DNA of 64,000 nt from Mariniblastus sp. (GTDB lineage Bacteria; Planctomycetota; Planctomycetia; Pirellulales; Pirellulaceae), in NCBI GenBank assembly GCA_965224765.1, contig CBDDAC010000029.1, positions 488,039 to 552,038 of the forward strand. Reading direction: 5' to 3'. Both the position numbers and the translations under genes were made by a program. Positions 21,220 to 38,500 of the stretch are shown piece after piece. Below the pieces are notes generated by a model. It was not told the DNA's origin and searched no databases. It saw only the letters and a list, made by a program, of their open reading frames with translations. Position 1 is the stretch's first letter. The number at the start of each line of letters is the position of its first letter.

Positions 21220-22197
21220 TTGATGAACATCGAACACCCTCAGCAAGTCGATCACCCTTCAGTGTGGTCTGGCGACGAACTTCTTGAACGCGACGACTGG
21301 AAATATCAGTTGCTACCCAAAGAGCAGCAGGAAATTGCGCGGCATGGAAGACTTGCCGAGTCGTTTGTCGAGCGACTCAAATTCGTCCAAAATGCTCTTG
21401 AACACGGGAGCGGCGTTAGCCTGATCCGAGGCATTCCCTTACAGTCGTTTTCACCGGAGGGGCTAGTCACTTTCTTCCAGTCTGTTGCGAACCATGTTGG
21501 CACTCCCATTTCGCAAAGTATCACAGGTGAAACGATTTTCAGCGTTCGCAATTCTGGTTTTGCAGAAGACGACCCTCGCGCTCGAGGTCCCAATACAAAA
21601 AAGAAACTTAGCTTTCATACCGACCGGTGTGACGTCATTGGATTTTTGTGTGTGAAACAAGCCAGGCAGGGTGGCGAGAATCAGGTCGTCAGCAGCATGG
21701 CCATTTACAACGAGATTCAACGGCAACGACCTGATCTCATGGAAGTATTGCTGAAGCCCTTTCTGTACAAACGTCACTCGGTCGATACGGCGAATGAGCA
21801 ACCGTATACCGAGCAGCCCATCTTTTCATTTTGCCAAGGGCATTTCGGAGCCAATCTGCTTCGCGTTTTGATCGAGCGCGCCTATGCCTCCGATGATACG
21901 CCCGCGATGGGTGATCTTCAGCGTGAAGCACTCGACTTTGTCGACGAGCAGGCAGCGCGGTCGGATCTTCATGTCACATTTACACAGCAACCTGGCGACA
22001 TCCTTTTCTTGAATAACTGGGTGACGTTGCACCGGCGAACGGCTTTCGAAGATCATGAAGAAGTCGCACAACGCAGGCACTTGCTGCGTGTTTGGTTGAG
22101 CATGTCCAACAGCCGCCCCATCGATCCAATGTTTGCAGGGAACTACGGTGCGACTGGCGCAGGAGAAATCCGTGGCGGAATTCAGGCGGCAACGTAA
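21220..22197 (+). CDS. TauD/TfdA-like Fe(II)/2-oxoglutarate-dependent dioxygenase family protein
   Basis: An HTD (H-x-D) motif in FHTDRCDVIGFLCV, a distal His in VTLHRRTAF, and a clavaminate-synthase-like fold pattern. Confidence 0.5.
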   Translation: MMNIEHPQQVDHPSVWSGDELLERDDWKYQLLPKEQQEIARHGRLAESFVERLKFVQNALEHGSGVSLIRGIPLQSFSPEGLVTFFQSVANHVGTPISQSITGETIFSVRNSGFAEDDPRARGPNTKKKLSFHTDRCDVIGFLCVKQARQGGENQVVSSMAIYNEIQRQRPDLMEVLLKPFLYKRHSVDTANEQPYTEQPIFSFCQGHFGANLLRVLIERAYASDDTPAMGDLQREALDFVDEQAARSDLHVTFTQQPGDILFLNNWVTLHRRTAFEDHEEVAQRRHLLRVWLSMSNSRPIDPMFAGNYGATGAGEIRGGIQAAT

Positions 22198-22250
22198 GTT
22201 CAAATTCGCTACAATTGAGATTCAATTGACTATTCATCAAAAGGTGAAAA

Positions 22251-22742
22251 ATGAACTCACGAGACGCCATCAAAAACACAATCAATACTGCAGATATGGT
22301 CTGTGGCGCTTATCTGGGAGACCTGTCTGACGAAGAGATGATGAAGCGACCTCATCCCGGTTGCAATCACGTCAACTGGCAAATCGGACATCTCGTTGTG
22401 GCTGATAATGAAATGGCCAATGGGTGTTTCCCAGGTACTTTGGCAGTGCTTCCAGAGGGATTTGCGGACAAGTATTCCAAGGAATCTGTCGGCAACGATG
22501 ACCCCAGCGCGTTTTGCAGCAAAGATGAATTGATGGGGCTGTTAAAGATCCAGCGAGAAGCAATCTTTGCCAAACTTGAGCAACTCAACGACGATGACTT
22601 GGACCAGCCAGCCCCAGAAAAAATGCAAGGTTATGCACCAACCGTTGGGGCGGCAATGAACATGATCGGAAGTCATTGGCTCATGCACGCCGGTCAGTGG
22701 GTAGTCCTTCGCCGCGAATTGGGTCGAGATATCGTGATCTAG
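22251..22742 (+). CDS. DinB/YfiT-like four-helix-bundle family protein
   Basis: 163 aa with His-containing helices (NWQIGHLVVADNEM, IGSHWLMHAGQW), typical of the DinB_2 family. Confidence 0.55.
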   Translation: MNSRDAIKNTINTADMVCGAYLGDLSDEEMMKRPHPGCNHVNWQIGHLVVADNEMANGCFPGTLAVLPEGFADKYSKESVGNDDPSAFCSKDELMGLLKIQREAIFAKLEQLNDDDLDQPAPEKMQGYAPTVGAAMNMIGSHWLMHAGQWVVLRRELGRDIVI

Positions 22743-23030
22743 TCCAAGTTGGACTTACCTATAGCGTCACCTCGTCGTTGTTTCCAAGACAAAACGACGA
22801 AAATACCGCCGTGTCTAAACTAAACGCGCTCTAGTGGTTCGACAGAGCTGATTTGACCAGTTTCCGTGGGTGCCATGCTTCACGCTTGCGTGAGCATGCT
22901 CGAGCAAGCGCAAGGCATGGCACCCACCAGCTCAGGTTGGTTGGACCCTAGGTCAAGTTGAACACGCTCTATTTCCGCAGTTCGCTTTTTGGGGCGGTCG
23001 AGGCTCATGCCGAGACATTTGTCCATGCGT
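22741..23030. repeat. Repeat family B copy (arm X plus core), with a family-A-like tail module
   Basis: The arm agtccaagttggacttacctatagcgtcacctcg...ctaaactaaacgcg is followed by the core ctagtggttcgacagagctgatttgaccag. Next comes the near-perfect palindrome ggtgccatgcttcacgcttgcgtgagcatg, then gcggtcgaggctcatgccgagacatttgtcc, which resembles the family A module. Confidence 0.8.
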
Positions 23031-23175
23031 GAATCACTCTCACTAGTAGACCTGGAGAGAGTCGGGCCCGCATTGATTCATTCCTTGTCAAAACGATACC
23101 GACCCACCGGTACGACCCATGGCGTCCACCCGATACAATACTTGGGTTACTGTGTGTTCCGGAATTCGAAAGTCG

Positions 23176-24672
23176 ATGAGTTCAGAATTCGTTTGTCGTT
23201 TTTGCTCTGCGAAGCTCCCCGCTTATGTCGCCAACGACACATGCCCCGAATGTGGCTGCTCGATTGACTTGCCTGGCAACAATCCTCCCGCCGAAACGGC
23301 GTCGGAACAGGCAACCATCCAGCCAGGGAGCCATCCGAAACCTTCTAAGACGGGCAGTACTAATGATTTGGTTGGAAGCGATTTTGGTGACTATCGTTTG
23401 CTTGAAGAAATCGCTCGCGGCGGAATGGGAGTCGTCTTTCGTGCCCAACAAAAGAGCCTTGATCGTTTTGTCGCGTTGAAAATGATTCTGGAAGGCTCAC
23501 TTGCCAGTCAGGTCGAAATTGATCGTTTCAAAATCGAAGCTCAGGCGGCTGCAAATCTCGAACATCCCGGCATCGTCCAAGTATTTGAAATTGGCGAGAT
23601 CGATGGAAGGCATTTCTTCTCGATGGCACTTGTTGAGGGTCAAAGTCTGGCAGACCAAATCAGCAGGGGCCCAATCGAGTCGATCGAGGCAGCGGAATTG
23701 TTGCTTAAGGTCGTCGATGCCATGGACTATGCACACCAGCGAGGCATCGTTCATCGTGACCTCAAACCTGCCAACGTTTTGTTGAATAACCAAGGCGAGC
23801 CGCGTGTAACGGATTTCGGATTGGCCAAGCGACCGGGGCGAGATCGCGAGCTGACGCTAACGGGACAGATGCTTGGCACTCCCAGCTACATGGCACCCGA
23901 ACAGGCAGGCGGCAAGGAAATCACCCCTGCAACAGATATCTACGGATTAGGCGCAATTCTTTATGCGATGCTCACTGGCAAAGCTCCATTCGAAGGCACT
24001 ACCGTCGTTGAAACGTTGACGCAGGTGATCGAGCAAGAGCCGGTTCCTCTTCGCCAGACGATCTCAACGATTCCATTGGATCTCGAGACCATATGTTTGA
24101 AATGTTTGGAAAAGGATCCGGCGGAGCGATTTGAGTCTGCTCAGGTGTTGAGAGAAGAGCTGCAACGTTTTATTGATGGCGAGGAGATCGCATCCAGACC
24201 ACTTAGTGCTCTTGGTAAGGTCATGCGTTGGCGTCGCGTGATCGCTCGAAACAAAGACGTTCGCTTGCAGTCGGCAACCAAAATCATGGGATTCCCTTTG
24301 GTGGATATTGCATTTGGCCGAGACCGAGAAAAGGGCGAGGAGTTCGGTCATGCCAAAGGAGTGATTGCCCTTGGTGATCGAGCAACGGGAATTGTTGCCT
24401 ATGGTGGATTTGCCCGCGGGGTTTTTGCTCTTGGGTTGTATGCGGTAGGGGGCGTGGCCAGTGGACTGTTTGCCGTTGGCGTTGTGACCGCGGGGATGCT
24501 TTCCGTGGGGGTCTTCTCGACGGGTGGAATATCCATTGGGTATACAGCCTTTGGTTTGATCGCGATCGGCTATTGGTCTTTGGGAATGGTGGCGCTGGGA
24601 GCGAAGGCCTTGGGACCGATTAGTTGGAGCTTGGCCAAAACTGCGATGAAAACAATCCGTCGAATCGTTTGA
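23176..24672 (+). CDS. Ser/Thr protein kinase with an N-terminal zinc ribbon and C-terminal glycine-zipper membrane repeats
   Basis: N-terminal CRFC...CPEC. Hanks kinase motifs GDYRLLEEIARGGMGVVFRA, ALK, HRDLKPANVLL, DFGLA and GTPSYMAPE. The C-terminal roughly 100 aa carry seven or more tandem G-x-x-A-x-G-x-x-A/G repeats (GVIALGDRATGIVAYGGFARGVFALGLYAVGGVASGLFAVGVV...). ORF 23119..24672. Confidence 0.8.
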   Translation: MSSEFVCRFCSAKLPAYVANDTCPECGCSIDLPGNNPPAETASEQATIQPGSHPKPSKTGSTNDLVGSDFGDYRLLEEIARGGMGVVFRAQQKSLDRFVALKMILEGSLASQVEIDRFKIEAQAAANLEHPGIVQVFEIGEIDGRHFFSMALVEGQSLADQISRGPIESIEAAELLLKVVDAMDYAHQRGIVHRDLKPANVLLNNQGEPRVTDFGLAKRPGRDRELTLTGQMLGTPSYMAPEQAGGKEITPATDIYGLGAILYAMLTGKAPFEGTTVVETLTQVIEQEPVPLRQTISTIPLDLETICLKCLEKDPAERFESAQVLREELQRFIDGEEIASRPLSALGKVMRWRRVIARNKDVRLQSATKIMGFPLVDIAFGRDREKGEEFGHAKGVIALGDRATGIVAYGGFARGVFALGLYAVGGVASGLFAVGVVTAGMLSVGVFSTGGISIGYTAFGLIAIGYWSLGMVALGAKALGPISWSLAKTAMKTIRRIV

Positions 24673-24722
24673 CTTGTGCAATTTTTGCTCGGTCAAATTA
24701 GGTTTTGCTTGTCAGAAAGTGA

Positions 24723-25487
24723 TTGGTCTATTTGATGTTTGGGTGGTTTAAAAGACGACGTCGACGAAAGATTCTGGCACAGCCTTGGCCGGAATCTTGG
24801 GGATTGCATTTCAATCGAAACGTCCGGCTGAGTTGGAACCTGAATTCGACGGAGGTGAAAAAGCTCCAAAGCTGCACCAAAATATTCGTTGCCGAGAAAC
24901 ACTGGGAAGGATGCGAAGGCCTTGAGCTAACCGAAGAAATGAAAGTCACCATTGCTGGGCAAGCTTGCTTGATGCTCTTGGGTGTCGAGGATTACTACTT
25001 TGACAATGTGAAAACGGTCCTTGTTTATCCACAGATTTTCAGCCGTAGTACAACTGATGGAGTCAGCGCGAATCAGGTTGAACATCGTTCTGGCGAAGCC
25101 TGGCAGGGAGGTCCCATCGTGTTGTCTTGGCGCGACGCACTGATCGGCGGACGAAATTACGATGATGGCAGAAACGTGGTTATCCACGAGTTCGCTCATG
25201 CACTCGACGGGCTGGATGGCGAGATGGGCGGAAATGTAATGTTCGACGATGCAGCGACGACGGCAGATTGGGAGCGTGTTGCCGATCGCGAGTTTTCAAA
25301 TTTGGTATCTGCCAAAGAAGGCGGATATCGAACACTTCTTGATCACTATGGTGCGACCAACCGGGCGGAGTTCTTTGCCGTCTCCACAGAGACCTTCTTT
25401 GAATTGCCGCGAGAACTGGAGCGAGAGCACAATGAATTGTTTCAACTGCTAAGAAAGTACTATCGTGTCGATCCAACCGATTGGTAG
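24723..25487 (+). CDS. MtfA-like zinc-dependent peptidase (peptidase M90 family)
   Basis: A HEFAH zinc-binding motif in a roughly 250-aa protein, with the conserved flanking pattern of MtfA (...VVIHEFAHALD...EFFAV(S/T)...). Confidence 0.65.
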   Translation: MVYLMFGWFKRRRRRKILAQPWPESWGLHFNRNVRLSWNLNSTEVKKLQSCTKIFVAEKHWEGCEGLELTEEMKVTIAGQACLMLLGVEDYYFDNVKTVLVYPQIFSRSTTDGVSANQVEHRSGEAWQGGPIVLSWRDALIGGRNYDDGRNVVIHEFAHALDGLDGEMGGNVMFDDAATTADWERVADREFSNLVSAKEGGYRTLLDHYGATNRAEFFAVSTETFFELPRELEREHNELFQLLRKYYRVDPTDW

Positions 25488-25533
25488 GCGTTTACCGGTG
25501 CCGGTAAAACGTTTGATTGCCTGAACAGCGCGG

Positions 25534-28500
25534 CTAGTGGGTCGCGCCATCATCTTCGGGAGCTTCTTCCTCTTCACTTGCCATCTTATCCATGAGCCGC
25601 TGGTAGTTGGCTTCCGTGGCTTTTGAGGCCCGCACAAAGCTCTCGGCTTGCGGGTTGGTTTCAGCCAGTTTGAGAATGGGCTCCATCCAGGTTTGCAGGA
25701 CGCGGAACTGGTTGCGAAGAACGTTGAGGATCACGTTGGGAACTTTATTGACGACTTCGATCTTATGTTCGCTGAGGTGACGAGGCAATTTGGCAATGGT
25801 TTCACCATGTTGTTCATAGGCGATCTTGATGGATTCTAATGTTCCGTTGAACTTGGCCAACTCTCCGACGACTCGCGAGATCTCTCGTAGTGTCACAGCC
25901 TGGAGGCTCTCCGACTCGTTGTCGTCTTTGGCCAGCATGGTCTTCATGCTTTTGTCCAAGGTAGAACTGATTCCATGCAGGCCATCAGAGAAGGTCGTCA
26001 TCTGGGCAATGATTTGACCCAATTGATCATCTCCCCCCGCGGCTCCGAGTACGAGGTTGCGTTTGTAGGTCCGGCAAATATCTTCCCAACGAGCCGCTTG
26101 TTCTTCATCCATCTGTTGGGTCATTTGACGGAACTTCAGCAGGTTGGCTTCCGCACCAGTGGTCAGTGTTTGTGCCTGATTCTCGTAGTGAGACATGATC
26201 AATATCTGTAATTCAGATTCGTTCATGATTGGAACGATCCGCTCTGCGATTTTGTTCATGTCGCGGTAGGAGCCTTGCATCTTGAATGCGGGCTCAGTCC
26301 GATAGTCGTCGGCCTGCGCGGCAGAATCGATGTATTCGCGATTGACTCGTAGAATCACGTCTCGGACAGTCAGCAGTTTTTGCATCACGCCGACAAACTC
26401 ATTGATCTCTTCGATGGAGTAGTTGCCCTCCAACGATTTGGGCGGAGCGTCTGGATGCTGTGCCATCTCAGCGATGGTATAGATATCTTGTCGACTTCGT
26501 GAATTCAGCTTGGCCAACGTAGAGTTGCTGGTCAGGCAGTTTTCCAGGTAACTCAGTTCAAACGCTTCGAGGCTGTCACCAATCACGTCACCGAGATTGT
26601 AGGTGTCAGCACGGTTGGCGAGCATGTCAGGAATCTGGAATTTCTCGCCGCTTTCCGTGTAGGGGTTACCTGCCATGACCACACAGACTTTGCGACCACG
26701 CAGATCGTAGGTTCGGGTGCGACCCCGGAACACGCCTTCGATACGACGTGTTGCATCACAAAGCGAAATGAACTTTTGCAAAAATTCCGGATTGCAGTGT
26801 TGAATATCGTCGAGGTAGATCATGACATTGTCACCCATTTCCAAGGCAAGGTTGAGTTTCTCAACCTCGTCACGTGCGCTGGCGTTGGGGGCTTCGCTCG
26901 GATCCAGTGACATGACACGATGGCCAATCGCCGGACCATTGATCTTGACGAAGGTAATGCCAAGTCGATTGGCGATGTATTCCATTAACGTTGTCTTGCC
27001 GTATCCGGGAGGGGAGATGAGCAGCAAAAGCCCCATCAAGTCGGTTCGTTTGTTCTCTCCCACGACACCAATTTGTTTTGCCAGGTTTGCACCCACCATC
27101 GGCAGGTAGACATCGTTGATCAGTTTGTTGCGGACAAACGATGTCAGGACACGTGGCTTGAATTCATCCAGTCTCAATTCCTGGCGGCGACTATCGGTCA
27201 GGTCCTTTTTGAGGTGGACGAAATTGTTGTAGCGAGGCACCGTTTCATCTTCGAAAAGGCGCAGTCGGTCCATGAACTGGTTGTAATTCAATTGATAGTT
27301 TTGGGCATCGACCAAGGGGTGGTCGCCAAGCAGGCCACTGACAGTAACCACGGGGTTGGCGTCAATGATTTTTGGTTTGCCCCGAGTGGCGTCGGCGAAA
27401 ATTGAAGCTGCCTCGTCGATGATGTCGTCGCTGATCGTAATCTGCTTGTGAGCGAGATACGAACGGATCCAGTCGTTGGCAATCTGATAGCGATCGACTC
27501 CTGACAGTGTTCTAGATTTCAAACTCTGTACAAGTACCCCTTTTGAGTCTTCACGCTTGAGGTGTTTTTCAAAGTCTGCAACCAAGTGAATGGCTGCGGC
27601 GCTGGCGACAAATGTTCTGGCAATCACAAGTTGATCGTACAGGCATTCGCTTGCAGCGGCCGCGTATCGAGATTCTGAAAACGCCGATTCTTCGATGAAT
27701 TCATTGATCAATAATTCGAGCTGCGAAATGTACTTTTCCCGACCGCTGACTGCGCCGAAGAGCTGTTGTGCTTCTGCCATCCCTTTCAGTTTGGCAGCTA
27801 GATTGTTTTTGATTGGCGCATCGAGTTGATTCCAAAAAACGCTGGCTAGCACACGAGCGGATGCCGAGTATTGGAGCAGGTCAAGTTTCTCGGTGAGTTT
27901 ACAAAGACTGCCCAGTATCAGCGTCGCGTCATGGTCATGAACACCCTTGATATATCCTTCAGAATATCGCGGTGCCATGAACTTCTGGACGTGCCCATTG
28001 AGTTGAATGCTGTCGAACTGAGCGAGATCTTTTAGTGACGGTTCGCTCGTCATTGACTCTTGCAAAAGCAAATAGGCGAGATACTCCGCGCGGTACACCT
28101 CGCGGTTCTCCGAGACGATGGCTTGATCCCAGACATCCCGCGATGTTTCGAACAGCTCGTCTTCAATTTTTTCAAAGTAATTGGTTCCACTCAAATGAAA
28201 CCAGGTGTCGCCTTCTTTGAGAACGGTTGTCAAATCCAGTTGTTGAATGTTGACCGAAAATTTGTGTTCACCAAACTTGATGACATTCTGGCCCTCAACG
28301 TAGAGCTCATTCTTGTCTCGTAGTTGACGAACGGCGTCTTCACGTACGGTCTTGAGACGGCTTTGGATATCATCGACCTTAACCGATTCATCCAGTTCGT
28401 CGAGTTGTTCGACGATATCGCGGACCTTCTCAATCATCAGGTCGGCGGCGAAATAGCTATTGATTTCGTCAACCGTTCCTAAGCCAGCCATACGCGATTG

Positions 28501-30846
28501 GATTCCCGTGAGAATCCTCTCGGCTGAGCTCATTAATGCGGTCGCACGGCGATTGCGTGCTTCGTTGAGTTGAAGCTTTTTGTTGTCGAAGGCGGCGTAT
28601 ATCTCTTCGCGTTTTTCGGCAAGCTGAATAATGAATTCATCAAACTCAGAGAATCGACCCTCGAGTTCTTCGACCTGAACCATCATTTTGGTCAGGTACT
28701 CATCACACTTTTGAGGTGACTCGCAGACATCTAAATAGTTAACGATCGCCTGGCTCAGCAGTTTCAATTGCGAGTTGAACTCAGCTGCGCCCTCCACCGA
28801 CATCAACGATTGGGATTTTTTCTTGAGCTGAGCGCGGGTCTTGTTGAGATTGGCATAGATCGTCGAAATATTGTCGATGATCTGAGTCCGTTTGGTCGCG
28901 TCATCGATTTTCAAATTGCTGACGATGTCGATCAGCATTTCCAACTCACTCGAGCCGTTGGAAATTTCCTCTCCGAGTTTTTTGGCTTCGACAACGGTAG
29001 CGATTGACTCGATAGACGACTGCTGAGAGTCGACGCGGTCGGTATAAGGCTTGAGCGAATTTTCCTTCAGCAGAAAACCAACACACTTCTGAGACAGGTT
29101 TTCCGTTTGTTCCGCAATACGTTGTTCCAGCAAGTCGATCGCTTCGAGATCAACGTATTTGAGTTCCTTGAGCGAAATGACCGAACCACGAGTCATTCGC
29201 AATTGGCCAAGTGACTGGACAAAATCATCGATTTGTCGGTAAGGTCGAACCTTGGCGTCCGAGATGGCTTTTTCAGCCTCAGTTGATGTGTTTTCAAACT
29301 GCTCGCGCGTGTTGCTGCGGACACGAATGACCTTGTCAAACTCATCAACCGCCGAGGTTGCCGCGGCATTAATCTCAGCAACGGTTTCGTTTAGGTTAAA
29401 CGTTTCAGAGTTTCCGAGCCAGAAGTAGGCATCGACGATGTCGCCCGACTTTTTGACGAGATCGTCATAGAGGCCGGCATAGGAATCGTCCTTCTTGATC
29501 AAGTTGATCAATTCACTGCACTCGGACATCGCTCGAACGACTTCGCGATTGCCAATCTTGTACAGATAGGAATCCGTTTTCGCATCAGTCGTCACATCGC
29601 TTCCGACAAACGGGGTTTGCCAGATTTGCAGGGCGTGGTGCTTGACCGGAGTTTCGTCGCTTCGAAAACAGATCTGCCGGCCGTCTTCAAACAGAGAAAA
29701 TCCGTTGCAGATGAGTGGCGTTTGCACCTGTTGTTCGATCATGTTGTACGAAAGCAGCACATAGTGCCCCGACTCTTGATGGAAAAAGACGTACAAAAAG
29801 TCTTCACCATTTGCGGCAGCAATCCGCTTTTCGAACATCAGCCCACTGAGGCCACTTTCAAATGTTTTGTGTTCACCCGATTGAAGATAAAAGCCGTTAG
29901 AAAAGATGAGGCCATGATCTTCTGGCAGCAGAACGCATGCCTGTTCAATCGCGTCCATTCGAGCGACGCGTTGCGTTTTTTCGTTGAAGATCAGGTAGCG
30001 ATAGTCATTCTCTTTGAAGGGTTTGATCTTCAGCAGAATCAAATTGCCGACACAGGCGTAGAAGATTTCCGCATCGTCCAGCGTTTGATCCGCATTTTCA
30101 ACGGGTTCACGATATATTCCCAATCCGTCGTCCGTGTTATCCTCGACTTTGACGGTCAGGTCTCCGCCAACAGTCTCCACGAATACGCGATCCTCGATCG
30201 AGATATGAGGGTGTTGTCCGCTGCGGTGCAGGTCTCGGTGGGTGCGCTTCCACTCAAAGTCATGTTGAGGAGGAAACTTCACCTCATGGTCGCTTCGATT
30301 GTCGACGTACTTCAAGCAACCTTCTTCGATCAGAAACTTGAAGCTCTTGATGTCCGTGACGGATTTGCCGACTTGGAAAACAAGATACAAGTAAGGCCCA
30401 ATGACCTGAAATTTACTGAACGATGTATCTTTGTAATACTTGTAGAGTTGTTTGAAATCGTGTTCGAAGTTGGGATTGTTAAGCAGGTCAAGAGATTCCT
30501 CGACGAAATGCTCACCTTCGGAATGGTAGACGGAGAACACGTCTTCCATTTTGGTTTCCGTACGCAATCCGATGTAGACGTTGTAGCCGAACAGCAAGCG
30601 GTTTCCGACAGCGACGATGTCGCAGGCCACACAATTGTTGGCCGTATTGATTCGTTCCGTACCTTTCAGCTCCGTTGGAATGGAGCCAAAGACATCGCGT
30701 CGCAGCTCATTCAGAAGCTCCATGCGATTTCGCAATTCGCCGGCATGAGTTTCCAGGCGATTGCGAATGATCTCGTAGGTGCTTCGTTCAAGCTGCGATT
30801 CGGTCGCGGATTGCGAGTCGGTTGATTTGGATGGATTCTCGGCCAT
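25534..30846 (-). CDS. Giant (1770 aa) protein with a MoxR/AAA_5-type AAA+ ATPase domain, encoded downstream of flotillin
   Basis: Walker A is LISPPGYGKTTL, Walker B is VMIYLDDIQHCNPEFLQ. Sensor motifs follow in VCVVMAGNPYTESGEKFQIPDMLANRADTYNL, paralleling the MoxR LADEINRAPP...ATQNP...LPEAQLDRF pattern. The N-terminal roughly 450 aa are beta-rich, followed by a roughly 700-aa helical/coiled-coil region. Confidence 0.7.
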   Translation of the reverse strand: MAENPSKSTDSQSATESQLERSTYEIIRNRLETHAGELRNRMELLNELRRDVFGSIPTELKGTERINTANNCVACDIVAVGNRLLFGYNVYIGLRTETKMEDVFSVYHSEGEHFVEESLDLLNNPNFEHDFKQLYKYYKDTSFSKFQVIGPYLYLVFQVGKSVTDIKSFKFLIEEGCLKYVDNRSDHEVKFPPQHDFEWKRTHRDLHRSGQHPHISIEDRVFVETVGGDLTVKVEDNTDDGLGIYREPVENADQTLDDAEIFYACVGNLILLKIKPFKENDYRYLIFNEKTQRVARMDAIEQACVLLPEDHGLIFSNGFYLQSGEHKTFESGLSGLMFEKRIAAANGEDFLYVFFHQESGHYVLLSYNMIEQQVQTPLICNGFSLFEDGRQICFRSDETPVKHHALQIWQTPFVGSDVTTDAKTDSYLYKIGNREVVRAMSECSELINLIKKDDSYAGLYDDLVKKSGDIVDAYFWLGNSETFNLNETVAEINAAATSAVDEFDKVIRVRSNTREQFENTSTEAEKAISDAKVRPYRQIDDFVQSLGQLRMTRGSVISLKELKYVDLEAIDLLEQRIAEQTENLSQKCVGFLLKENSLKPYTDRVDSQQSSIESIATVVEAKKLGEEISNGSSELEMLIDIVSNLKIDDATKRTQIIDNISTIYANLNKTRAQLKKKSQSLMSVEGAAEFNSQLKLLSQAIVNYLDVCESPQKCDEYLTKMMVQVEELEGRFSEFDEFIIQLAEKREEIYAAFDNKKLQLNEARNRRATALMSSAERILTGIQSRMAGLGTVDEINSYFAADLMIEKVRDIVEQLDELDESVKVDDIQSRLKTVREDAVRQLRDKNELYVEGQNVIKFGEHKFSVNIQQLDLTTVLKEGDTWFHLSGTNYFEKIEDELFETSRDVWDQAIVSENREVYRAEYLAYLLLQESMTSEPSLKDLAQFDSIQLNGHVQKFMAPRYSEGYIKGVHDHDATLILGSLCKLTEKLDLLQYSASARVLASVFWNQLDAPIKNNLAAKLKGMAEAQQLFGAVSGREKYISQLELLINEFIEESAFSESRYAAAASECLYDQLVIARTFVASAAAIHLVADFEKHLKREDSKGVLVQSLKSRTLSGVDRYQIANDWIRSYLAHKQITISDDIIDEAASIFADATRGKPKIIDANPVVTVSGLLGDHPLVDAQNYQLNYNQFMDRLRLFEDETVPRYNNFVHLKKDLTDSRRQELRLDEFKPRVLTSFVRNKLINDVYLPMVGANLAKQIGVVGENKRTDLMGLLLLISPPGYGKTTLMEYIANRLGITFVKINGPAIGHRVMSLDPSEAPNASARDEVEKLNLALEMGDNVMIYLDDIQHCNPEFLQKFISLCDATRRIEGVFRGRTRTYDLRGRKVCVVMAGNPYTESGEKFQIPDMLANRADTYNLGDVIGDSLEAFELSYLENCLTSNSTLAKLNSRSRQDIYTIAEMAQHPDAPPKSLEGNYSIEEINEFVGVMQKLLTVRDVILRVNREYIDSAAQADDYRTEPAFKMQGSYRDMNKIAERIVPIMNESELQILIMSHYENQAQTLTTGAEANLLKFRQMTQQMDEEQAARWEDICRTYKRNLVLGAAGGDDQLGQIIAQMTTFSDGLHGISSTLDKSMKTMLAKDDNESESLQAVTLREISRVVGELAKFNGTLESIKIAYEQHGETIAKLPRHLSEHKIEVVNKVPNVILNVLRNQFRVLQTWMEPILKLAETNPQAESFVRASKATEANYQRLMDKMASEEEEAPEDDGATH

Positions 30847-30986
30847 GGACCAAAATTGGATTGAGTTGGGAATGGGTAAACGAAAGAGGCCAGTTTTACT
30901 GACCCGTCAGCGAATGACTGACGTCTCAATCGAAGGAAACGTCAGTCGTCAAGAGTTGCACCTCGAGAGTTACAACCAACTGACCA

Positions 30987-33014
30987 CTAGGCTTTACCTT
31001 TCGCCAGGTTCAATGTCGATGCCTTGGCCGACGACAATCCAGCTCGATTTGCCATGCTGATCATTCCCTGCAACTTGCCCATGACACCTGTGTCATTGGT
31101 TTGTCCCATCATTTGGCCGATCAAAGCGGCAACGGATAGATTCTTCATGTCTTCGGTACCGATACCGAACATCTCCACGTAATTACCCAACTCAGATTTG
31201 AAGTGTTCAGGATCACCATTGAAGAAGGTTTCTTTGACGTCAGTCAATACAGTGCTGCCTTCGACAAGTCGATCGACCTGTTTTCCAGCCGTGATGCTTC
31301 CGACGATATTCTCAAAGAATTTGTTGTCCCCACCGACGATGTCGATGTTGGCGCTCTTGAGTGCTTCCCCGACCATTTCAGCCTGTGCTTCAGCGATCCT
31401 GTGTTGAGTCGCGATGGCTTCCAATTCAATTTCCTTGTCTTTGTTCAGTCGAAGTTTGAACTCTTCGTGCTCGCGACCTACGCCATCGAACAACTTCATC
31501 GCTTCGGCTTTCTGGGTGATGCCTTTTGCGTCGGCATTGAACTTCAATTCTAGAACCTGTGCTTCGGCCGTACCTTCTTTCTTGAGGGCATCGGCTTTTG
31601 CCAGCGTGACTTCTGCTTCGGCCAATCCAGATGCAGCCTCTTCTGCACGAGTCGCATCGGCCAGCATTTTCTTGGCGTCTGTTTCTTTCTCCGCCGCGGT
31701 GCGCTCGGCTTCGGCTGTGATCACGACGGTTTCCGCTTTCAACTCAGCTGATTGTTTCTCTGCTTCGGCAGCTTGAACTTGAACAACCAAATCCTGCTGT
31801 GCGGTTTGTTCGGCAGCGGTAACGGCGACTTGCTTTTTACGATCGGCATCGGCGAATTCGCGGGTGTCTTTGATTTTCTCTTCTTCTTCAACCACTTCAC
31901 GTTCGACCATAACACGCTGGCGGATGACATCTTGAATGTTCTTCTTCTCGACTTCGACCGCTTTTTCTTTTTCGATTTCCGCCAGGGTTACCACTCGTTC
32001 GCGTTCTGTGATCTCGAGACCGCGATCTTTCTCGACTCGTTCAGTCTCGACGGCATCGGTACGTTCTTTGTTCTTGGCGGCAACGATGATGGAGCGAAGC
32101 TTATTCTCTTCGGCGACTTGGATTTCTTCTTCGGCGGTGATCTTTGCGGTTTCAGAGCGTTGTCGTTCCTGTTGGCTGACAATTTCCGATTCGGCTCGCT
32201 CTCGCGCTTTGATTTCCGTGATTTCACGAAGCTGTTTTTCTTCGGCTTCGGCTTGTTGTTTTTCTAGTTCCAGAATGGCTTCGCGAGCTTCGACGTCTTG
32301 TTTGGTGATCGTCTTTTCTTTTTCGCGACGAATGAAGTTGGCTGCCACCTGCTCTCTGGCCGTCAGGTCGGTAATCTTCTTAATACCCTCAGAATCGAGG
32401 ACATTGTTCACGTTGAGTCGCTCAATGGGTGTTTGCTCAAGAAAGTCGATGGCGACATCGTCCAGAACGTAACCATTGAGGTCGGTGCCGATGACCTTTT
32501 TGATTTCGTCGCGGAATTCTTCACGAGAGTTGTACAGATCGACAAAGTCAAACTGCTTGCCAACGGTTTTCAGGGCTTCCGAGAATTTCGGCTCGAAAAG
32601 CTGAATCAGAGAGGTTTCACTTGAGGCGCGTTCGCAACCCAGAAACTGAGCAACGTCAGCAACGCTTTTCGTGTCCTTGTTGACTCGTACAAAGAAATCA
32701 ACACGGATGTCAGCGCGGATGTTGTCTTTACAGATCAAGCCATCCTCACCGTTCCGATCGATGCCGACTTTCTTGACGGTGATATCCATCAATTCAACCT
32801 TGTGAACGACGGGAAAGGCAATCATTCCGTCAAAGGTAACCTTGGTTCCACCCATTCCGTTTTTCACCAAGGCGGTACCTTGAGGAACCTTTCGGTAGCA
32901 GTTGATGACCAGCACCAAGAGTCCGCCGAAGGTCAATACGATCATTCCGGCTATTGTGGCAGTGAGCATAAATGGAAACCCACTATCTTGACCGAGAAGC
33001 AAAATCAAATTCAT
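30987..33014 (-). CDS. Flotillin-family SPFH/band-7 protein (FloT/YqiK-like)
   Basis: An N-terminal TM is followed by an SPFH domain (LVKNGMGGTKVTF...ICKDNIRADIRVDFFVRV...LIQLFEPKFSEALK). A very long E/A/K-rich flotillin coiled-coil comes next. The start codon abuts the NfeD stop, indicating translational coupling. Confidence 0.85.
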   Translation of the reverse strand: MNLILLLGQDSGFPFMLTATIAGMIVLTFGGLLVLVINCYRKVPQGTALVKNGMGGTKVTFDGMIAFPVVHKVELMDITVKKVGIDRNGEDGLICKDNIRADIRVDFFVRVNKDTKSVADVAQFLGCERASSETSLIQLFEPKFSEALKTVGKQFDFVDLYNSREEFRDEIKKVIGTDLNGYVLDDVAIDFLEQTPIERLNVNNVLDSEGIKKITDLTAREQVAANFIRREKEKTITKQDVEAREAILELEKQQAEAEEKQLREITEIKARERAESEIVSQQERQRSETAKITAEEEIQVAEENKLRSIIVAAKNKERTDAVETERVEKDRGLEITERERVVTLAEIEKEKAVEVEKKNIQDVIRQRVMVEREVVEEEEKIKDTREFADADRKKQVAVTAAEQTAQQDLVVQVQAAEAEKQSAELKAETVVITAEAERTAAEKETDAKKMLADATRAEEAASGLAEAEVTLAKADALKKEGTAEAQVLELKFNADAKGITQKAEAMKLFDGVGREHEEFKLRLNKDKEIELEAIATQHRIAEAQAEMVGEALKSANIDIVGGDNKFFENIVGSITAGKQVDRLVEGSTVLTDVKETFFNGDPEHFKSELGNYVEMFGIGTEDMKNLSVAALIGQMMGQTNDTGVMGKLQGMISMANRAGLSSAKASTLNLAKGKA

Positions 33015-33647
33015 CTAGTTACTCTCCAGTTTCGCCAATTCAACGAGGCATACATCTTTTTCGCGATCATAAGCCACGATCATAACGACATTGCCTTTTT
33101 GCAATGTCTGACCGGATTCATTTCTCGCATTTAGAACCATCAAAGGTCCATCAATATTAATTTCAATCTCGCCATATGTTTGGTCGAGTTTCAACGTGTG
33201 CACGACCGCAGTTTGCCCAATCAAATCATTTCGATCAAACTGGCGATCCACCGAACGAAAAACTCGCGCGATCGGAGCAACACAAATTTTGGTTAACAAT
33301 AGGCTGACGGTTCCGCAAGGGAATAACCACATCGCGGTCGTCAACAGGTCGAACTCCGGATTCAAGTAGTGATTGGTACACACTGTTGAGATCCAGAAGA
33401 ACAACGAGAAAAACGACAGGATTAACATCAATGGAACTTGCCCAATATGGAAAAAGGCAAACATCGTTCCGAGGAAACCTTCTGCTAAATGTAGGTCCGC
33501 ATCTCCGTCCATGTCGGCATCGACATCAAAAGCATCGATTCCAACTGCACCAAAGATCACGAATAACCAATACAATGCGACTAAGCCTAACAACGAGGTT
33601 GCCAGTATGTTCGCCGAGTTGGTAATTTCGATCAGGAATTCGCCCAT
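33015..33647 (-). CDS. NfeD-family membrane protein (YuaF/YqiJ-like)
   Basis: 210 aa with several N-terminal TM helices and a C-terminal OB-fold-like region (GQTAVVHTLKLDQTYGEIEINIDGPLMVLNARNESGQTLQKGNVVMIV). It sits immediately upstream of flotillin in the canonical nfeD-floT arrangement. Confidence 0.75.
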   Translation of the reverse strand: MGEFLIEITNSANILATSLLGLVALYWLFVIFGAVGIDAFDVDADMDGDADLHLAEGFLGTMFAFFHIGQVPLMLILSFFSLFFWISTVCTNHYLNPEFDLLTTAMWLFPCGTVSLLLTKICVAPIARVFRSVDRQFDRNDLIGQTAVVHTLKLDQTYGEIEINIDGPLMVLNARNESGQTLQKGNVVMIVAYDREKDVCLVELAKLESN

Positions 33648-34002
33648 CGTTTACTCATTAAGTTATGGAGGGAAGTTTTGCGGTGGTTTGATCAACCGTT
33701 ATCACGCGCAATCCGAGCGCAAAAATAGCTTAACGTTATCTGGCCGCACAAAGAATGATGCTCAATTGCTCCCAATTCAACTGAGCAGACAAGGTAAATG
33801 CCATTCACATCGATGTCGAGAATTTCAGGGTCACGAAGATAGTCAACTTGATGTTCTGCATTTTGAACGGTATTCGCTGCAGGGTCATGAATATTGCCGA
33901 GAATCCCTTTCGGTGCGTTCAAATCCTGGTTTTTGCCCCTTCATATGATCCTTAGGCTTTGGCGAAATCGCAGTTAACGGGTGGCATGATCGAGGCTCCC
34001 GT

Positions 34003-34036
34003 GCAAAAAAAAACGCCCAGGCGAATAGCCTGAGCG
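34003..34036 (-). terminator. Rho-independent terminator downstream of the TlpA-like gene
   Basis: On the minus strand the hairpin cgctcaggc-tattc-gcctgggcg is followed by nine T (plus strand tgcaaaaaaaaacgcccaggcgaatagcctgagcg). It begins about 30 nt after the stop at 34065. Confidence 0.7.
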
Positions 34037-34064
34037 TGAGAAAAACGACATTGGCGATGAAGGA

Positions 34065-35312
34065 CTATTTGTCCTTCTTTTTTGCCTTGGGTTTGTCTTC
34101 GTCTTTGTCTTCGTCATCGTGGGTGATTTCAACTTCGTGGCCCATCTCAGCGAGAAGCGTTGTGACGGCGTTGTCCATTTTGGCGCCTCGAACACCTTTG
34201 TAGCGAATGACACCATCAGCATCGAGAACATAAATCGTCGGCCAACCTTGCACACCCCATTTGGTAGAGATGGGTCCGCCGGTCCCGTCTGGACCATTCC
34301 AGAAGCTTCGCCAAGTAATATTCTTCTCTTTGACAACCTTCTGAATTTCTTCCAGGTCTGGATCACTATTTACGCCGATCAGTGCAAAAGGCTTGTCTGC
34401 CAATTGTTTTACGAGCGACCGCTCGTGTGGGAACATCGCCCGGCAAGGAGGTCACCAATCGCCCCAGAAGTCGATTACGACAACTTTTCCACGATAGTCA
34501 CTCAGCTTGAACTCGACTTCATCAAGATCGGCGCCTTCAATATCGGGAGCAACTTTGCCGATTTGCAGATATCGCATTTCAAACAATTTGCTCTCGGCCA
34601 TTTCACCAAGAGTGCCGCGTCCAGCATCAACGTCAGAGTAGTTTTCCACGATGGACTCAAAAAGTTGTTCGACTTCCGCATCGATGGCTTTTGCAGACCA
34701 TTTTGTCATGAACGCTTCGCCACCGTCGCCGATTGATTCCAGCATTCGTTTCTGACGTCGTTCAGAAGCATCATGAAAACTAGAGAGGCTCGATAGCATT
34801 GAGGCCAGGCTCATGGTGGCATAGCCTTTGACTTTGTCGTGTGGACTGACTTCGATAAGCTTGCGGAGCAATGCTTCCGAATCAGGGCCTGGTTTTCTTG
34901 CGAATGATCTTGCAACGGCGGCAAGTTCCTCCGAGTCGTTGAACTCTGACATGAGGGTTTCAACTGCAGAGTCGGCGATGTCACCTTGGGAGCTTTCAAT
35001 AACCCAAACCAGCATCTGGAGGGCCTCTGCCTCTTCGGCACCTTCAACGAGCCCAAGAACTTTTGTGCCCAGCTCTTCCGTCGCGTCCGCGAACTCCAAG
35101 TTGATGGCTTCCTTCTCTTCATTCGTTGCGTTGCGAGTTTCTTTTCGCTGCTTGCTACGCAATTTTGAGAATGCCCGTTTTGCATCGCGGAATTGCTCTG
35201 CGATTGTAGGTTCTTCTTCCTGCTTTGAGTCAGCCTTTTCATCGTCTTGCGCGATCAAAATGGGGGCCATCAAAAGCAGTAACATTAGCGACAATAGCCA
35301 ACGCAGTTTCAT
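34065..35312 (-). CDS. TlpA/ResA-like secreted thiol:disulfide oxidoreductase, candidate selenoprotein with in-frame TGA at 34452..34454 (W-U-P-P-C)
   Basis: ORFs 34452..35312 and 34065..34436 are in the same frame and are separated only by TGA plus five codons. Read through, they give ...DYRGKVVVIDFWGDW-[TGA]-PPCRAMFPHERSLVKQLADKPFALIGVNSDPD...GWPTIYVLDADGVIRY, a textbook TlpA fold with TGA at the first active-site Cys. An N-terminal signal peptide and a helical domain precede it. Confidence 0.6.
34411..34426 (-). promoter_or_regulatory. SECIS-like hairpin downstream of the in-frame UGA
   Basis: The mRNA reads ACGAGC-GGUC-GCUCGU, a 6-bp perfect stem with a GGUC apical loop. Its 5' base lies 26 nt after UGA, so the loop is at +35 to +38. 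The loop resembles the E. coli fdhF SECIS apical loop. Confidence 0.4.
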
Positions 35313-35558
35313 CGTGTTACTCCAATAGAGGTGTTTGGGTTAAGGGGTTGTGTAGCATACCAGCTTTCTTGCCAGATGAGTGATGTCGAAGCGCTGAATC
35401 GATCACAAAAAGTAGCTGAGCGTACAAGCCCCGACGTTGATACTAAAATCTTCTGCTTCACTTTATTGCAAATTAGGCGGGACAAGTTCATCAACATAAA
35501 AAAAGCGTTGATATCCAGAGATAGCAACGCCTTGTTCAGGGTTTGAATGTCCGACGAA

Positions 35559-38500
35559 CTACTGGTTCCAGTCGGGGATTTTTCGGCCAGGAGTCCATGG
35601 TGCACCCGCTTCATCGAGTTGTTCGAACAAGCTCTGGACATCGTCTTCAATCAGCGTCTGCAAGTCTCCAATGACTTCGCGGTATTCTTCGCCCGCAATT
35701 TCGAATTGACGTTGATGGGTACCGGTGGGGCCCGTCAATGAGCCCATCACGCCACCCATCATCGTGCGAATCCGAGACTGAAGACCAGGATATGCCGATT
35801 CGTTGCGCAGCGATTTGGTCGGATCGCCATTGAATTTTTCCATAATATCCATCAAGCGAAGTTCCAACTCGCGAACTTCGTTTACCAGGGTCGGATCCAA
35901 ATCGGGTGTTCGCTCGATGACTCCTTTGATCGAAGCCAGTTGGGATTGAACTTCCTGGGCAACACTTGTTGCTGCAGATACGGCATCGGACAACCCAGCA
36001 GCTTCCGTGGCAAATTCGATGATGGCGCCTCGATCAATTTCGGAATCACCACCAAAGTTGAGTGGTTCGATTTCAAACTCCGTTGCTCCGATCAATTCGG
36101 TGACTTCCCCTTCGACCATCTGAGAGACCTCAATGGTGTAGGTTCCTGGAATTGCCATGGGGCCACCGCGGCGTCCAAATCCTTCAACACTGAAATCCCA
36201 TTGAGTTCGATGAAGCCCCTTGGAGGTGCTTCCAGGAAGTCGACGAACCACGTCGCCAAAAGAATCGCGGATCGTCAAAGTAACCTTCGGACCGATTTCG
36301 CGATCCTCAGCTTTGAGTTCATCCCAGGTAGGGTAGGGGGCGTCGCGACCGGCGGTCGCAGCCTTGCCGTCTTTTGCCGTTCTTTCAGATTTTTTCGACT
36401 TGAGTGAATCCTTCAGATGATAAGTAAAGTTGACTCCAAAGGCCGGATTGGGCGCGGAGAAAAAGTTGGCACCCTGGAATGCTCTACGACCCACCGCAAG
36501 TGGAGCAGATTGCATAAACATCTGGCCCTTCTTGATCGGAAACATCTTGTTAGTCTCCAGCGTTTCCTCGGAAAGCTCGCGAAGTGGTGTGTAGTCATCC
36601 AGAATGTAGAATCCACGTCCGAATGAAGCGAGGACCAAATCGTTTTCACGTGCTTGAATCTCGATATCACGAATGCCGACGGTTGGAAGGCCAGCACTCA
36701 ACTCAATCCATTTCTCGCCACCATTGATTGTAAAGTAGCAACCAAATTCCGTTCCACAGAACATCAGTTTCGGGTTCACGTGATCTTGTTTAATGGTGTA
36801 AACACTTCCACGTTCAGGAAGATCACCCGTGATATCTGTCCACGACTCGCCTCGATCTGTCGACTTGACGATGTAGGGTCGGAAGTCACCACGCTTATGG
36901 TTGTTGACTGCGACATAAACCGTATCCGCGTCGTGAAGATCGGCTTCGATATCGTTGATGTAACCAAACTCAGGAACTTCCAGCGAACCAAATTTTCCGA
37001 TCGCTTGCCAGGTGCCGCCACCATCTTGAGTGACTTGCACCATGCCATCGTCGGTACCCGCATAAATCAAGCCTTCTTCGAATGGAGATTCGCTGAGGCT
37101 AACGATTGTTCCATAGAGTGATGTGGACGCATTTTTGGCAACGGAATCAACTCCCCATACCCGACCCATCACTTTCAGCGTGTTGCGGTCGATGTTCCGT
37201 GAAAGGTCTTCACTAATGGGCGACCAGTTGTCACCGCGATCGTCGCTTTGGAAAAGGATCTGAGAGCCGTAGTAAATCCTCTTGCTGTCATGAGGTGAAA
37301 TCAAAAGGGCTGAATCCCAGTTCCAACGAAGGGTGGGACCGCCTTTTTCTGGCTGTGGTTTGATGTCGACTCGGGTTTGGGTTCGGCGATCAAATCGAAT
37401 CAATCCACCATACTGCCACTGAGAATACACGGTGTTGGGATCGTCAGGATCAACCGCAGGATCAAAGCCATCACCAAAGACGGTAATGAACCAGTCGCTA
37501 TTTCGAATCCCGTGAATGTTGGTTGTTTGAGAAGGTCCACCCTGTGTCGCGTTGTCCTGAGTCCCGCCATAAACGAAATAGAATGGCAAGTCGTTACTGA
37601 CTGCGACCTTGTAGAACTGGGTGATCGGAAGGTTTGCTTTGAAATCGTACGTTTTCCCGCGATCCCAAGTTTCATAAAGGCCACCATCGCATCCAATGAT
37701 CAGGTGGTCCTGGTCGGCGGGATCGATGACCAACGCGTGGTTGTCAACATGTTTGTCCGCTTCACCGAGTGATTCGAAATTTTGGCCGCCATCCTCACTG
37801 ACCATCATGTAAGTATCCAGCGAATAGATGCGATCTAACTTGTGAGGACATGCAACAATTTCCTGGTAGTACTGTGGGCTTCCAGAAACGTAATCGCCCA
37901 TTCGAGACCAAGTTTCACCTCGGTTAGCACTTCGGTAAAAACCACTTTGACTACCGGTTGCTTCGACGACCGCGTAAAGAATTTCGGGATTGACCGGCGA
38001 AATGTCCATCCCGATTCGGCCTTTGTCACCGCCTGGCAATCCGCGGTTGATTTTCCGCCAGGTGGTACCGCCGTCAGTTGATTTGTGAATACCCGATTCT
38101 GGCCCACCATCAATTAGAACCCAGGTGTGTCTTCTTCGCTGATAAGACGAAGCGTACATGATGTTTGGATTTGTGGGATCCAAGTGAACTTCGTTAATTC
38201 CGGTATCTTTACTGATGTCGAGAACTTTGCTCCAGGTCGAACCCCCATCGATCGTTTTGTAAAGTCCTCGGTCGCCACCTTCGCTCCAGAGCGGACCTTG
38301 TGCCGCAACGAACACAATGTTGCTATCGTCGGGATGAACAACGATTTTGCCGATGTGTTCACTGTTTTCCAAGCCGACCCGCTTAAAGCTTTGTCCGCCA
38401 TCAGTGGATTTGTACAGTCCATCGCCATAGCCGACGGAACGCTGTGAGTTATTTTCTCCTGTACCGACCCAGATCGTAAAACGATCGTTGGGGTCAATCG

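Follow-up and report, generated by a model that had tools for sequence, protein, structure and literature searches.

We identified three adjacent, co-oriented genes in a 64,000-nt stretch of a contig from Mariniblastus sp. (Planctomycetota; Pirellulaceae), the whole of which is called the window below. They encode, in order, a YqiJ/YuaF-type membrane protein, a flotillin-type protein with an SPFH domain, and a giant soluble protein with an AAA+ ATPase module in its C-terminal part. Judged by how regularly the genes stay together across genomes, the three are one conserved functional module. With moderate confidence we propose that this module is an ATP-driven assembly or remodelling factor that acts on, or from, a flotillin scaffold at the cytoplasmic face of the membrane, in membrane maintenance.

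All three open reading frames (ORFs) are on the minus strand, one behind the other:

33015..33647, minus strand: gene 1, YqiJ/YuaF-type, NfeD-like membrane protein, 210 aa
30987..33014, minus strand: gene 2, flotillin-type SPFH protein, 675 aa
30847..30986, minus strand: flotillin-ATPase spacer, 140 nt
25534..30846, minus strand: gene 3, soluble protein of the DUF3686/DUF7902/AAA+ family, 1770 aa

The TAG stop codon of gene 1 immediately abuts the ATG of gene 2 ('aac tag atg aat'). An earlier note on this DNA had pointed out the three co-oriented genes, the TAG-ATG junction and the 140-nt gap, and all are present in the ORF coordinates and the sequence.

In a scan of GTDB genomes, one per species, at least 589 loci with relatives of the ATPase were found. 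The best 80 of these were kept and joined with five loci fetched earlier; the requirement for at least 3 kb of upstream sequence left 68 loci. A homologous flotillin gene is located upstream of the ATPase gene, on the same strand, in 66 of the 68 (phmmer E 1e-75 to 1e-286). The two genes are separated by 350 nt or less in 44 of these 66 loci, and in some Clostridia they overlap by 11 nt (gap -11). By profile search, a YqiJ-like gene is recognisable before the flotillin gene in 60 of the 68 loci. Six loci (L048, L056, L065, L073, L074 and L076) have the flotillin-ATPase pair with no detectable YqiJ-like gene, which makes the pair the core of the module. The flotillin ORFs of L048, L065, L073 and L076 are longer (approximately 725–770 aa) and more divergent.

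The loci from the scan belong to Planctomycetota, Bacteroidota, Verrucomicrobiota, Desulfobacterota, Clostridia, Lentisphaeria and Chitinispirillaceae. Plasmid records add Pseudomonadota, Actinomycetota and Deinococcota, for a sum of about ten phyla. The trio is retained in the three loci examined from the most distant clades (27–40% identity, including Actinomycetota), where the proteins are approximately 200 aa, approximately 670 aa with a Band_7 domain, and approximately 1600 aa in length. The outer flanks differ wherever they were read, which includes relatives at 85%, 72% and 59% identity, four annotated plasmid records from four phyla, and the three distant-clade loci.

The plasmid records provide a second view of the linkage. 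The ATPase was found in 13 of 72,556 plasmid records, and the 13 best tblastn matches to the flotillin fall in the same 13 records. The flotillin and ATPase matches are adjacent in all of them except that of Deinococcus actinosclerus, where approximately 3.7 kb lies between the matched stretches. Below the top 13, the matches have 29–33% identity over the N-terminal half only and correspond to YqiK-like flotillins; unlike the window, the plasmid records that carry them do not have the ATPase. In the D. actinosclerus plasmid (CP029777.1, 335980-342945) the flotillin is on the same strand and the ATPase match covers only residues 1155-1627. This ATPase gene may be disrupted, or its N-terminal part may be very divergent. 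The earlier note had asked whether homologues of the giant protein occur away from SPFH and NfeD genes; what emerged instead is linkage, in 66 of 68 loci and 13 of 13 plasmid records.

The trio itself has been described previously. Ravi et al. (mSystems 2024, PMC11237479) reported an operon of CesT/Tir-PspA and three further genes, in the order CesT/Tir-PspA-YqiJ/YuaF-(Band-7 + coiled coil + flotillin)-(beta-propeller + coiled coil + AAA+ ATPase), in which the three-transmembrane protein is prototyped by YqiJ and YuaF. Their example is from Dokdonia donghaensis, around ANH61663.1, and the supplement gives a matching gene order. They also described abbreviated operons without PspA that retain the flotillin and the YqiJ/YuaF protein, in some cases along with the ATPase. 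The three proteins, their order and their domain architectures are alike in the window. However, the window is a planctomycete (Pirellulaceae-like) instance and is without CesT/Tir or PspA: single-sequence search of the 64 kb found no gene for either, and no PspA was found by profile search. It therefore corresponds to the abbreviated form of the operon. Both the conserved neighbourhood and the named Pfam domains of the module were known before, and the locus described here is a PspA-less planctomycete example. The functional reading offered by Ravi et al. is similar to ours, and their paper contains no quantitative linkage figures, structure models or experiments. Beyond it, our literature search returned no paper on the ATPase or on its link to flotillin, and nothing for DUF3686/PF12458. 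The earlier note had called the system a candidate uncharacterised one; this is correct in that no experimental study was found, but the trio is not new.

The full five-gene form, with CesT/Tir-PspA directly upstream, occurs in 18 Bacteroidota loci, although CesT/Tir itself was undetected in one of them (L035). In a nineteenth locus (L014) PspA is downstream and on the opposite strand. A different association is found on the Pseudomonas fluorescens plasmid pQBR103 (L003, 85112-97641), where a PspA-polyamine operon lies directly upstream of the trio. The genes preceding the trio encode PspA, a rhomboid protease, DUF2491, DUF350 and DUF1190 proteins, and a glutathionylspermidine-synthase-like protein. 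This arrangement joins two of the PspA operon classes of Ravi et al.

Gene 1 encodes a protein with three hydrophobic segments by hydropathy (residues ~11-42, ~58-92 and ~105-127), an acidic D-rich loop, and a C-terminal beta-rich domain seen in the family alignment. The protein matches Pfam YqiJ_N just above threshold (E 1.9e-5, 25.3 bits, cut-off 23), and 9 of 25 orthologues also match this model. The Pfam NfeD C-terminal (OB-fold) domain, PF01957, gives no match to gene 1 at E values up to 10, and only one of the 25 orthologues matches it (E 0.0024). A profile of the gene 1 family aligns with the structure of the soluble domain of YuaF (2k14) in the expected region with E 0.52, which is suggestive though short of significance. 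By these comparisons the product of gene 1 is of YqiJ/YuaF type and NfeD-like, but cannot be shown to be an NfeD. The label 'NfeD' in the earlier note is loose.

Gene 2 has the features by which a flotillin is recognised: a membrane anchor, an SPFH domain, a long coiled coil, and homology to annotated flotillins. From composition and hydropathy, a hydrophobic N-terminal anchor (residues ~11-43) leads into the SPFH domain (~42-190), followed by an E/A/K-rich coiled coil of approximately 330 aa and a conserved C-terminal domain. Residues 1-250 match Band_7/SPFH with E 5.6e-10 and 40 bits (Pfam gathering cut-off 23.6). The full-length protein has no Pfam match at all, presumably because of the E/A/K-rich coiled coil; 5 of 21 family members match Band_7/SPFH as full-length proteins. 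By tblastn, residues 13-344 are 28.7% identical (E 5e-23) to genes annotated 'flotillin family protein' on E. coli plasmids, and the Streptomyces orthologue has the same NCBI annotation. More specific models do not recognise the protein. The NCBIfam FloT equivalog model scores 17.1 bits against a cut-off of 700, and the Pfam Flot C-terminal model has no match to gene 2 at E values up to 10 and matches 0 of the 21 family members. A search of the PDB with gene 2 as a single sequence returned nothing, and the family profile found only QmcA (E 8e-4), in the coiled-coil region.

The E. coli YqiJ-YqiK and B. subtilis YuaF-FloT pairs are among the known systems closest to genes 1 and 2. They share with the window a multi-pass NfeD-like gene directly upstream of the flotillin gene, and YqiK, FloT and gene 2 have the N-terminal anchor, SPFH domain and coiled coil in common. 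However, neither the Pfam NfeD C-terminal domain nor the NCBIfam FloT model is matched by the window proteins, and gene 2 falls in a subfamily of its own, whose C-terminal half is longer and distinct and which co-occurs with the ATPase.

Gene 3 consists of three large parts, arranged from the N-terminus as follows:

29617..30672, minus strand: beta-propeller, residues 59-410 (AlphaFold model; within the DUF3686 match, residues 37-475)
27394..29568, minus strand: helical-bundle rod of approximately 700 residues, residues 427-1151, including DUF7902 (597-679) and a beta insert (855-893)
26047..27141, minus strand: MoxR-like AAA+ module, residues ~1236-1600 (Pfam, homologue alignment, model and fold search)

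Pfam identifies DUF3686 (E 2e-189, residues 37-475) and DUF7902 (E 2.6e-28, residues 597-679). The protein thus belongs, by sequence, to the DUF3686/DUF7902 AAA+ family, defined by these domains with a C-terminal AAA+ module in a protein of approximately 1600–1800 aa. There are more than 5300 homologues with the same set of Pfam domains, under the NCBI family name 'DNA repair ATPase'. A representative library was searched with residues 1-700 of the protein. Hydropathy gives no transmembrane segment.

AlphaFold models of gene 3 were made from 37-sequence alignments. The N-terminal and middle part is modelled with a mean predicted local distance difference test score (pLDDT) of 84 and comprises a helix (residues 21-53), the beta-propeller (59-410), helical bundles (427-848), a small beta domain (855-893) and a helical domain (919-1151). 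The model has the same layout as the beta-rich N-terminus, helical middle and C-terminal AAA+ core that the earlier note had read from the translation. Searches with the propeller in Foldseek found only generic WD40, Kelch and prolyl-oligopeptidase propellers, and those with the rod only generic spectrin- or talin-like bundles. The helical domain at 919-1151 is poorly conserved apart from an invariant G-x-H-D-x-D motif, 'GVHDHDA' (GVHDxD; residues 968-973, window 27928-27945). This motif could be a metal-binding or catalytic site. A Pfam scan of the surrounding residues 850-1240 found no family.

Conservation among 28 homologues of 29–50% identity is far higher in the AAA+ core than in any other part of gene 3. 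The translation contains the motifs SPPGYGKTT, IYLDDIQH and GNPYTESGEKFQIPDMLANRADTYNL, among which are all those quoted for the ATPase in the earlier note (GYGKTT, LDDIQ and GNPYTESGEKFQIPDMLANRADTYNL), and the quoted motifs are invariant or nearly so in the 28 homologues. The Walker A motif GYGKT has its lysine at K1284 and the Walker B aspartates are D1346-D1347. Comparison of positions and motifs further gives a candidate sensor-1 residue (N1394), a candidate arginine, R1412 in DMLANRAD, and a candidate sensor-2 residue (R1528 in QGSYRDM). The model of residues 1150-1770 has a pLDDT of 79 and shows a helical C-terminal extension beyond the module.

The assignment of this module to the MoxR group is reasonable but not proven. 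In its favor, the AAA_5 score of 28.4 bits is above the cut-off of 22, the top-ranked Foldseek match is the MoxR protein CbbQ2, and the MoxR proteins CbbQ and NorQ have the highest template modelling scores (TM-scores) normalised to target among the top-ranked matches (0.53–0.61). However, the generic Pfam AAA model scores higher (33.6 bits) and MCM and RuvB have fold E-values similar to those of the MoxR matches. The MoxR/AAA_5 call of the earlier note is likewise reasonable but unproven. A PDB sequence search with the ATPase found only P-loop stretches of Cdc48, p97 and RuvB. Gene 3 resembles the MoxR chaperones (CbbQ, NorQ and RavA) in its AAA_5 match, in its closest solved folds by target-normalised TM-score, and, as we read the sequence, in the order of a Walker B motif, a beta-hairpin insert and 'GNP...PDMLANRA'. 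It differs in being approximately six times longer, with approximately 1230 residues of propeller and rod in front of the module, in having no VWA partner in the operon, and in its Asp-Asp Walker B motif.

The 140-nt spacer between genes 2 and 3 contains two hairpins, with a 12-bp stem at 30947-30916 and an 8-bp stem at 30905-30887 that is followed by CTTTCGTTTA. The predicted fold is more stable than that of shuffled controls (z = -2.85). The second stem is the only terminator-like structure in the spacer, and a weak one. A scan for sigma-70-like promoters found none in the spacer, with a consensus that does not cover planctomycete promoters. The earlier note had looked to a promoter or terminator in this gap as a sign of independent transcription; no promoter match was found and the terminator amounts to this one weak hairpin. 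The spacer cannot be aligned even with that of the 85%-identical relative, and sequence conservation is absent there. Many other loci have a strong hairpin of their own at the flotillin-ATPase junction, an observation made without a control. It is plausible that the spacer hairpins are a partial terminator or an mRNA-stability element that yields more scaffold than ATPase, and the ATPase gene may be transcribed independently or with attenuation here.

The data establish which domains the three proteins contain and that their genes stay linked; how the module might work can be outlined from the architecture of its proteins. The trio would operate on the cytoplasmic side of the inner membrane. 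If solved SPFH assemblies are a guide, the flotillin-type protein would be held in the membrane by its hydrophobic N-terminal segment and would oligomerise through its SPFH domain and long coiled coil into a large scaffold or cage, and the three-helix YqiJ/YuaF-type partner would sit in the membrane beside it. The ATPase may assemble into a ring through its MoxR-like AAA+ module, while the beta-propeller, held on the helical rod of approximately 700 residues, could bind the flotillin scaffold or clients held there. ATP hydrolysis would then assemble, disassemble or remodel the scaffold. The module would thereby regulate a flotillin platform in an energy-dependent manner and serve in membrane maintenance or envelope stress, a role that fits its frequent joining to CesT/Tir-PspA operons in Bacteroidota.

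A more specific version, which we put forward only tentatively, is that the giant protein is a dedicated ATP-driven assembly or disassembly machine for flotillin cages, with the co-travelling flotillin subfamily as its obligate substrate. The proposed parallel for an ATPase acting on SPFH scaffolds is that of Vps4 on ESCRT-III and NSF on SNAREs.

SPFH cages paired with an AAA+ enzyme at the membrane are known from HflK/C-FtsH and from prohibitin and the m-AAA protease. The likeness to the window, an SPFH scaffold together with an AAA+ machine, is one of analogy. Gene 3 differs from FtsH and the m-AAA protease in that it has no protease domain and no transmembrane segment and belongs to a different AAA+ clade. 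In addition, the bulk of gene 2 is presumably cytoplasmic, whereas that of HflK/C-type cages is periplasmic.

Several observations weigh against an ATP-driven factor acting on the flotillin scaffold. Gene linkage establishes a shared function but does not make the flotillin the substrate. Unrelated small genes lie between the flotillin and ATPase genes in 22 of the 66 loci, and in two of the 68 (L015 and L036) there is no flotillin within 8 kb upstream of the ATPase. In this organism the stable hairpins in the 140-nt gap leave co-transcription putative. The Walker B motif 'YLDDIQH' has Asp-Asp (D1346-D1347, codons at window 26806-26811) in place of the usual Asp-Glu, and this is invariant in the 28 homologues, which may mean that ATP is turned over slowly or in an unusual way. 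The usual partner of a MoxR protein has a VWA domain, and a scan of the three proteins and eight flanking ORFs detected none. Finally, the literature search found no experiments on the module, whether on interaction, localisation or phenotype.

The genes inserted between the flotillin and the ATPase include those for DMP19-like, DUF3997 and DUF3592-like proteins and an IS200-like transposase, and they are found mostly in Bacteroidota and Verrucomicrobiota (for example, L012 6612-7698, L044 5874-7774 and L018 5662-6186). They were considered as a fourth component of the module and rejected, since they are miscellaneous in kind. The ATPase genes of L015 and L036 have as neighbours genes for a TPR protein, a Uma2-family endonuclease and a TonB_C protein.

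The main alternative is that the flotillin only recruits or encloses the ATPase, which would assemble, extract or repair other membrane-associated proteins or complexes as its real substrates. The linkage evidence is the same for both models, and there is established precedent in the SPFH platforms that enclose AAA+ enzymes (HflK/C-FtsH, and prohibitin with the m-AAA protease). Moreover, the maturation of other protein complexes is the typical task of MoxR-type ATPases, of which CbbQ and NorQ are the nearest in fold, and a beta-propeller is a generic protein-binding module. However, the module has no conserved gene that could encode a client, its outer flanks differing wherever read, and in the plasmid set each ATPase comes with a member of this flotillin subfamily and vice versa, as expected of a dedicated pair more than of a general platform. 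We regard this platform model as rather unlikely.

A role in conflict or defence, in which the module senses or counters phage or envelope attack through, for example, membrane repair or abortive infection, has only a slim probability in our view. PADLOC gives marginal P-loop matches of the ATPase to IetA and mad8 (E ~3e-4, 18 bits) and nothing for the other two proteins, and an effector domain (nuclease, toxin or pore) was undetected in all three. The neighbours in the window are housekeeping-like (TauD, DinB, a Ser/Thr kinase, an M90 peptidase and a BNR/sortilin protein). What speaks for defence is the presence of the module on megaplasmids (pQBR103 and plasmids of Streptomyces, Deinococcus and Hymenobacter), its linkage to PspA ('phage shock') operons, and a variable genomic position with an apparently patchy distribution.

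It is very improbable that the database name is right, that the ATPase acts in DNA repair, and that its adjacency to flotillin is incidental. The name appears in the NCBI product 'DNA repair ATPase' and in the Pfam description of DUF3686, 'ATPase involved in DNA repair', and there are weak RuvB_N matches limited to the P-loop. However, these RuvB matches span approximately 50 residues around Walker A and score 22–25 bits against cut-offs of 282–299. No DNA-binding, nuclease or SMC/Rad50 head domain was found in the ATPase, the module is without DNA-repair genes, and linkage to membrane proteins is conserved in 66 of 68 loci. The literature search turned up no paper that backs the name. Most likely 'DNA repair ATPase' is an inherited label of a long coiled-coil ATPase, and as a widespread product name it is probably misleading.

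The alternative raised in the earlier note, that the 1770-aa gene is an unrelated, separately transcribed downstream gene, can draw on the two stable hairpins of the 140-nt gap (one of them weakly terminator-like) and on the 22 loci with inserted genes, but it is effectively refuted by adjacency conserved in about ten phyla amid differing outer flanks, by the overlapping genes (gap -11) of some Clostridia loci and by a gap with no sigma-70-like promoter match, and even separate transcription would leave the functional linkage intact.

The role of bacterial flotillins and the control of flotillin assemblies are still debated, and a dedicated ATPase of approximately 200 kDa offers a concrete handle on both. 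From its association with a single flotillin subfamily in about ten phyla, scaffold dynamics would be expected to include an energy-dependent step. If the giant ATPase is indeed a dedicated machine for flotillin cages, it would be the first known energy-dependent regulator of flotillin membrane domains. Homologues are found in genera with cultivable or tractable species, including Proteus mirabilis, Vibrio campbellii, Pseudomonas (pQBR103), Streptomyces and Flavobacterium.

The limits of the module in the window are marked by the following elements:

34013..34037, minus strand: strong terminator-like hairpin of the intrinsic type (10 pairs, 7 of them G-C, then T8)
33648..34012, minus strand: non-coding leader of 365 nt, presumed operon promoter region
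25491..25508, no strand: palindromic hairpin between the ATPase gene and a convergent M90 peptidase gene

The hairpin at 34013..34037 closes the preceding transcription unit and is the 5' boundary of the module. The leader at 33648..34012 is presumed to be the promoter region of the operon; no promoter was identified within its 365 nt. The palindromic hairpin at 25491..25508 is likely the 3' end of the operon. An Rfam scan of 25000-34500 gave no match.

The downstream flank (21220-25487) encodes a TauD-family dioxygenase, a DinB_2 protein, a Ser/Thr protein kinase and the M90 peptidase, and the upstream flank (34065-38816) a redoxin-like ORF and a 1085-aa BNR/sortilin-Vps10 repeat protein. The order of the flanking genes is partly syntenic with the 85%-identical relative, in which additional genes are inserted behind that for the ATPase. 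Among the matches listed, the closest ATPase homologues with a source name are from Pirellulaceae.

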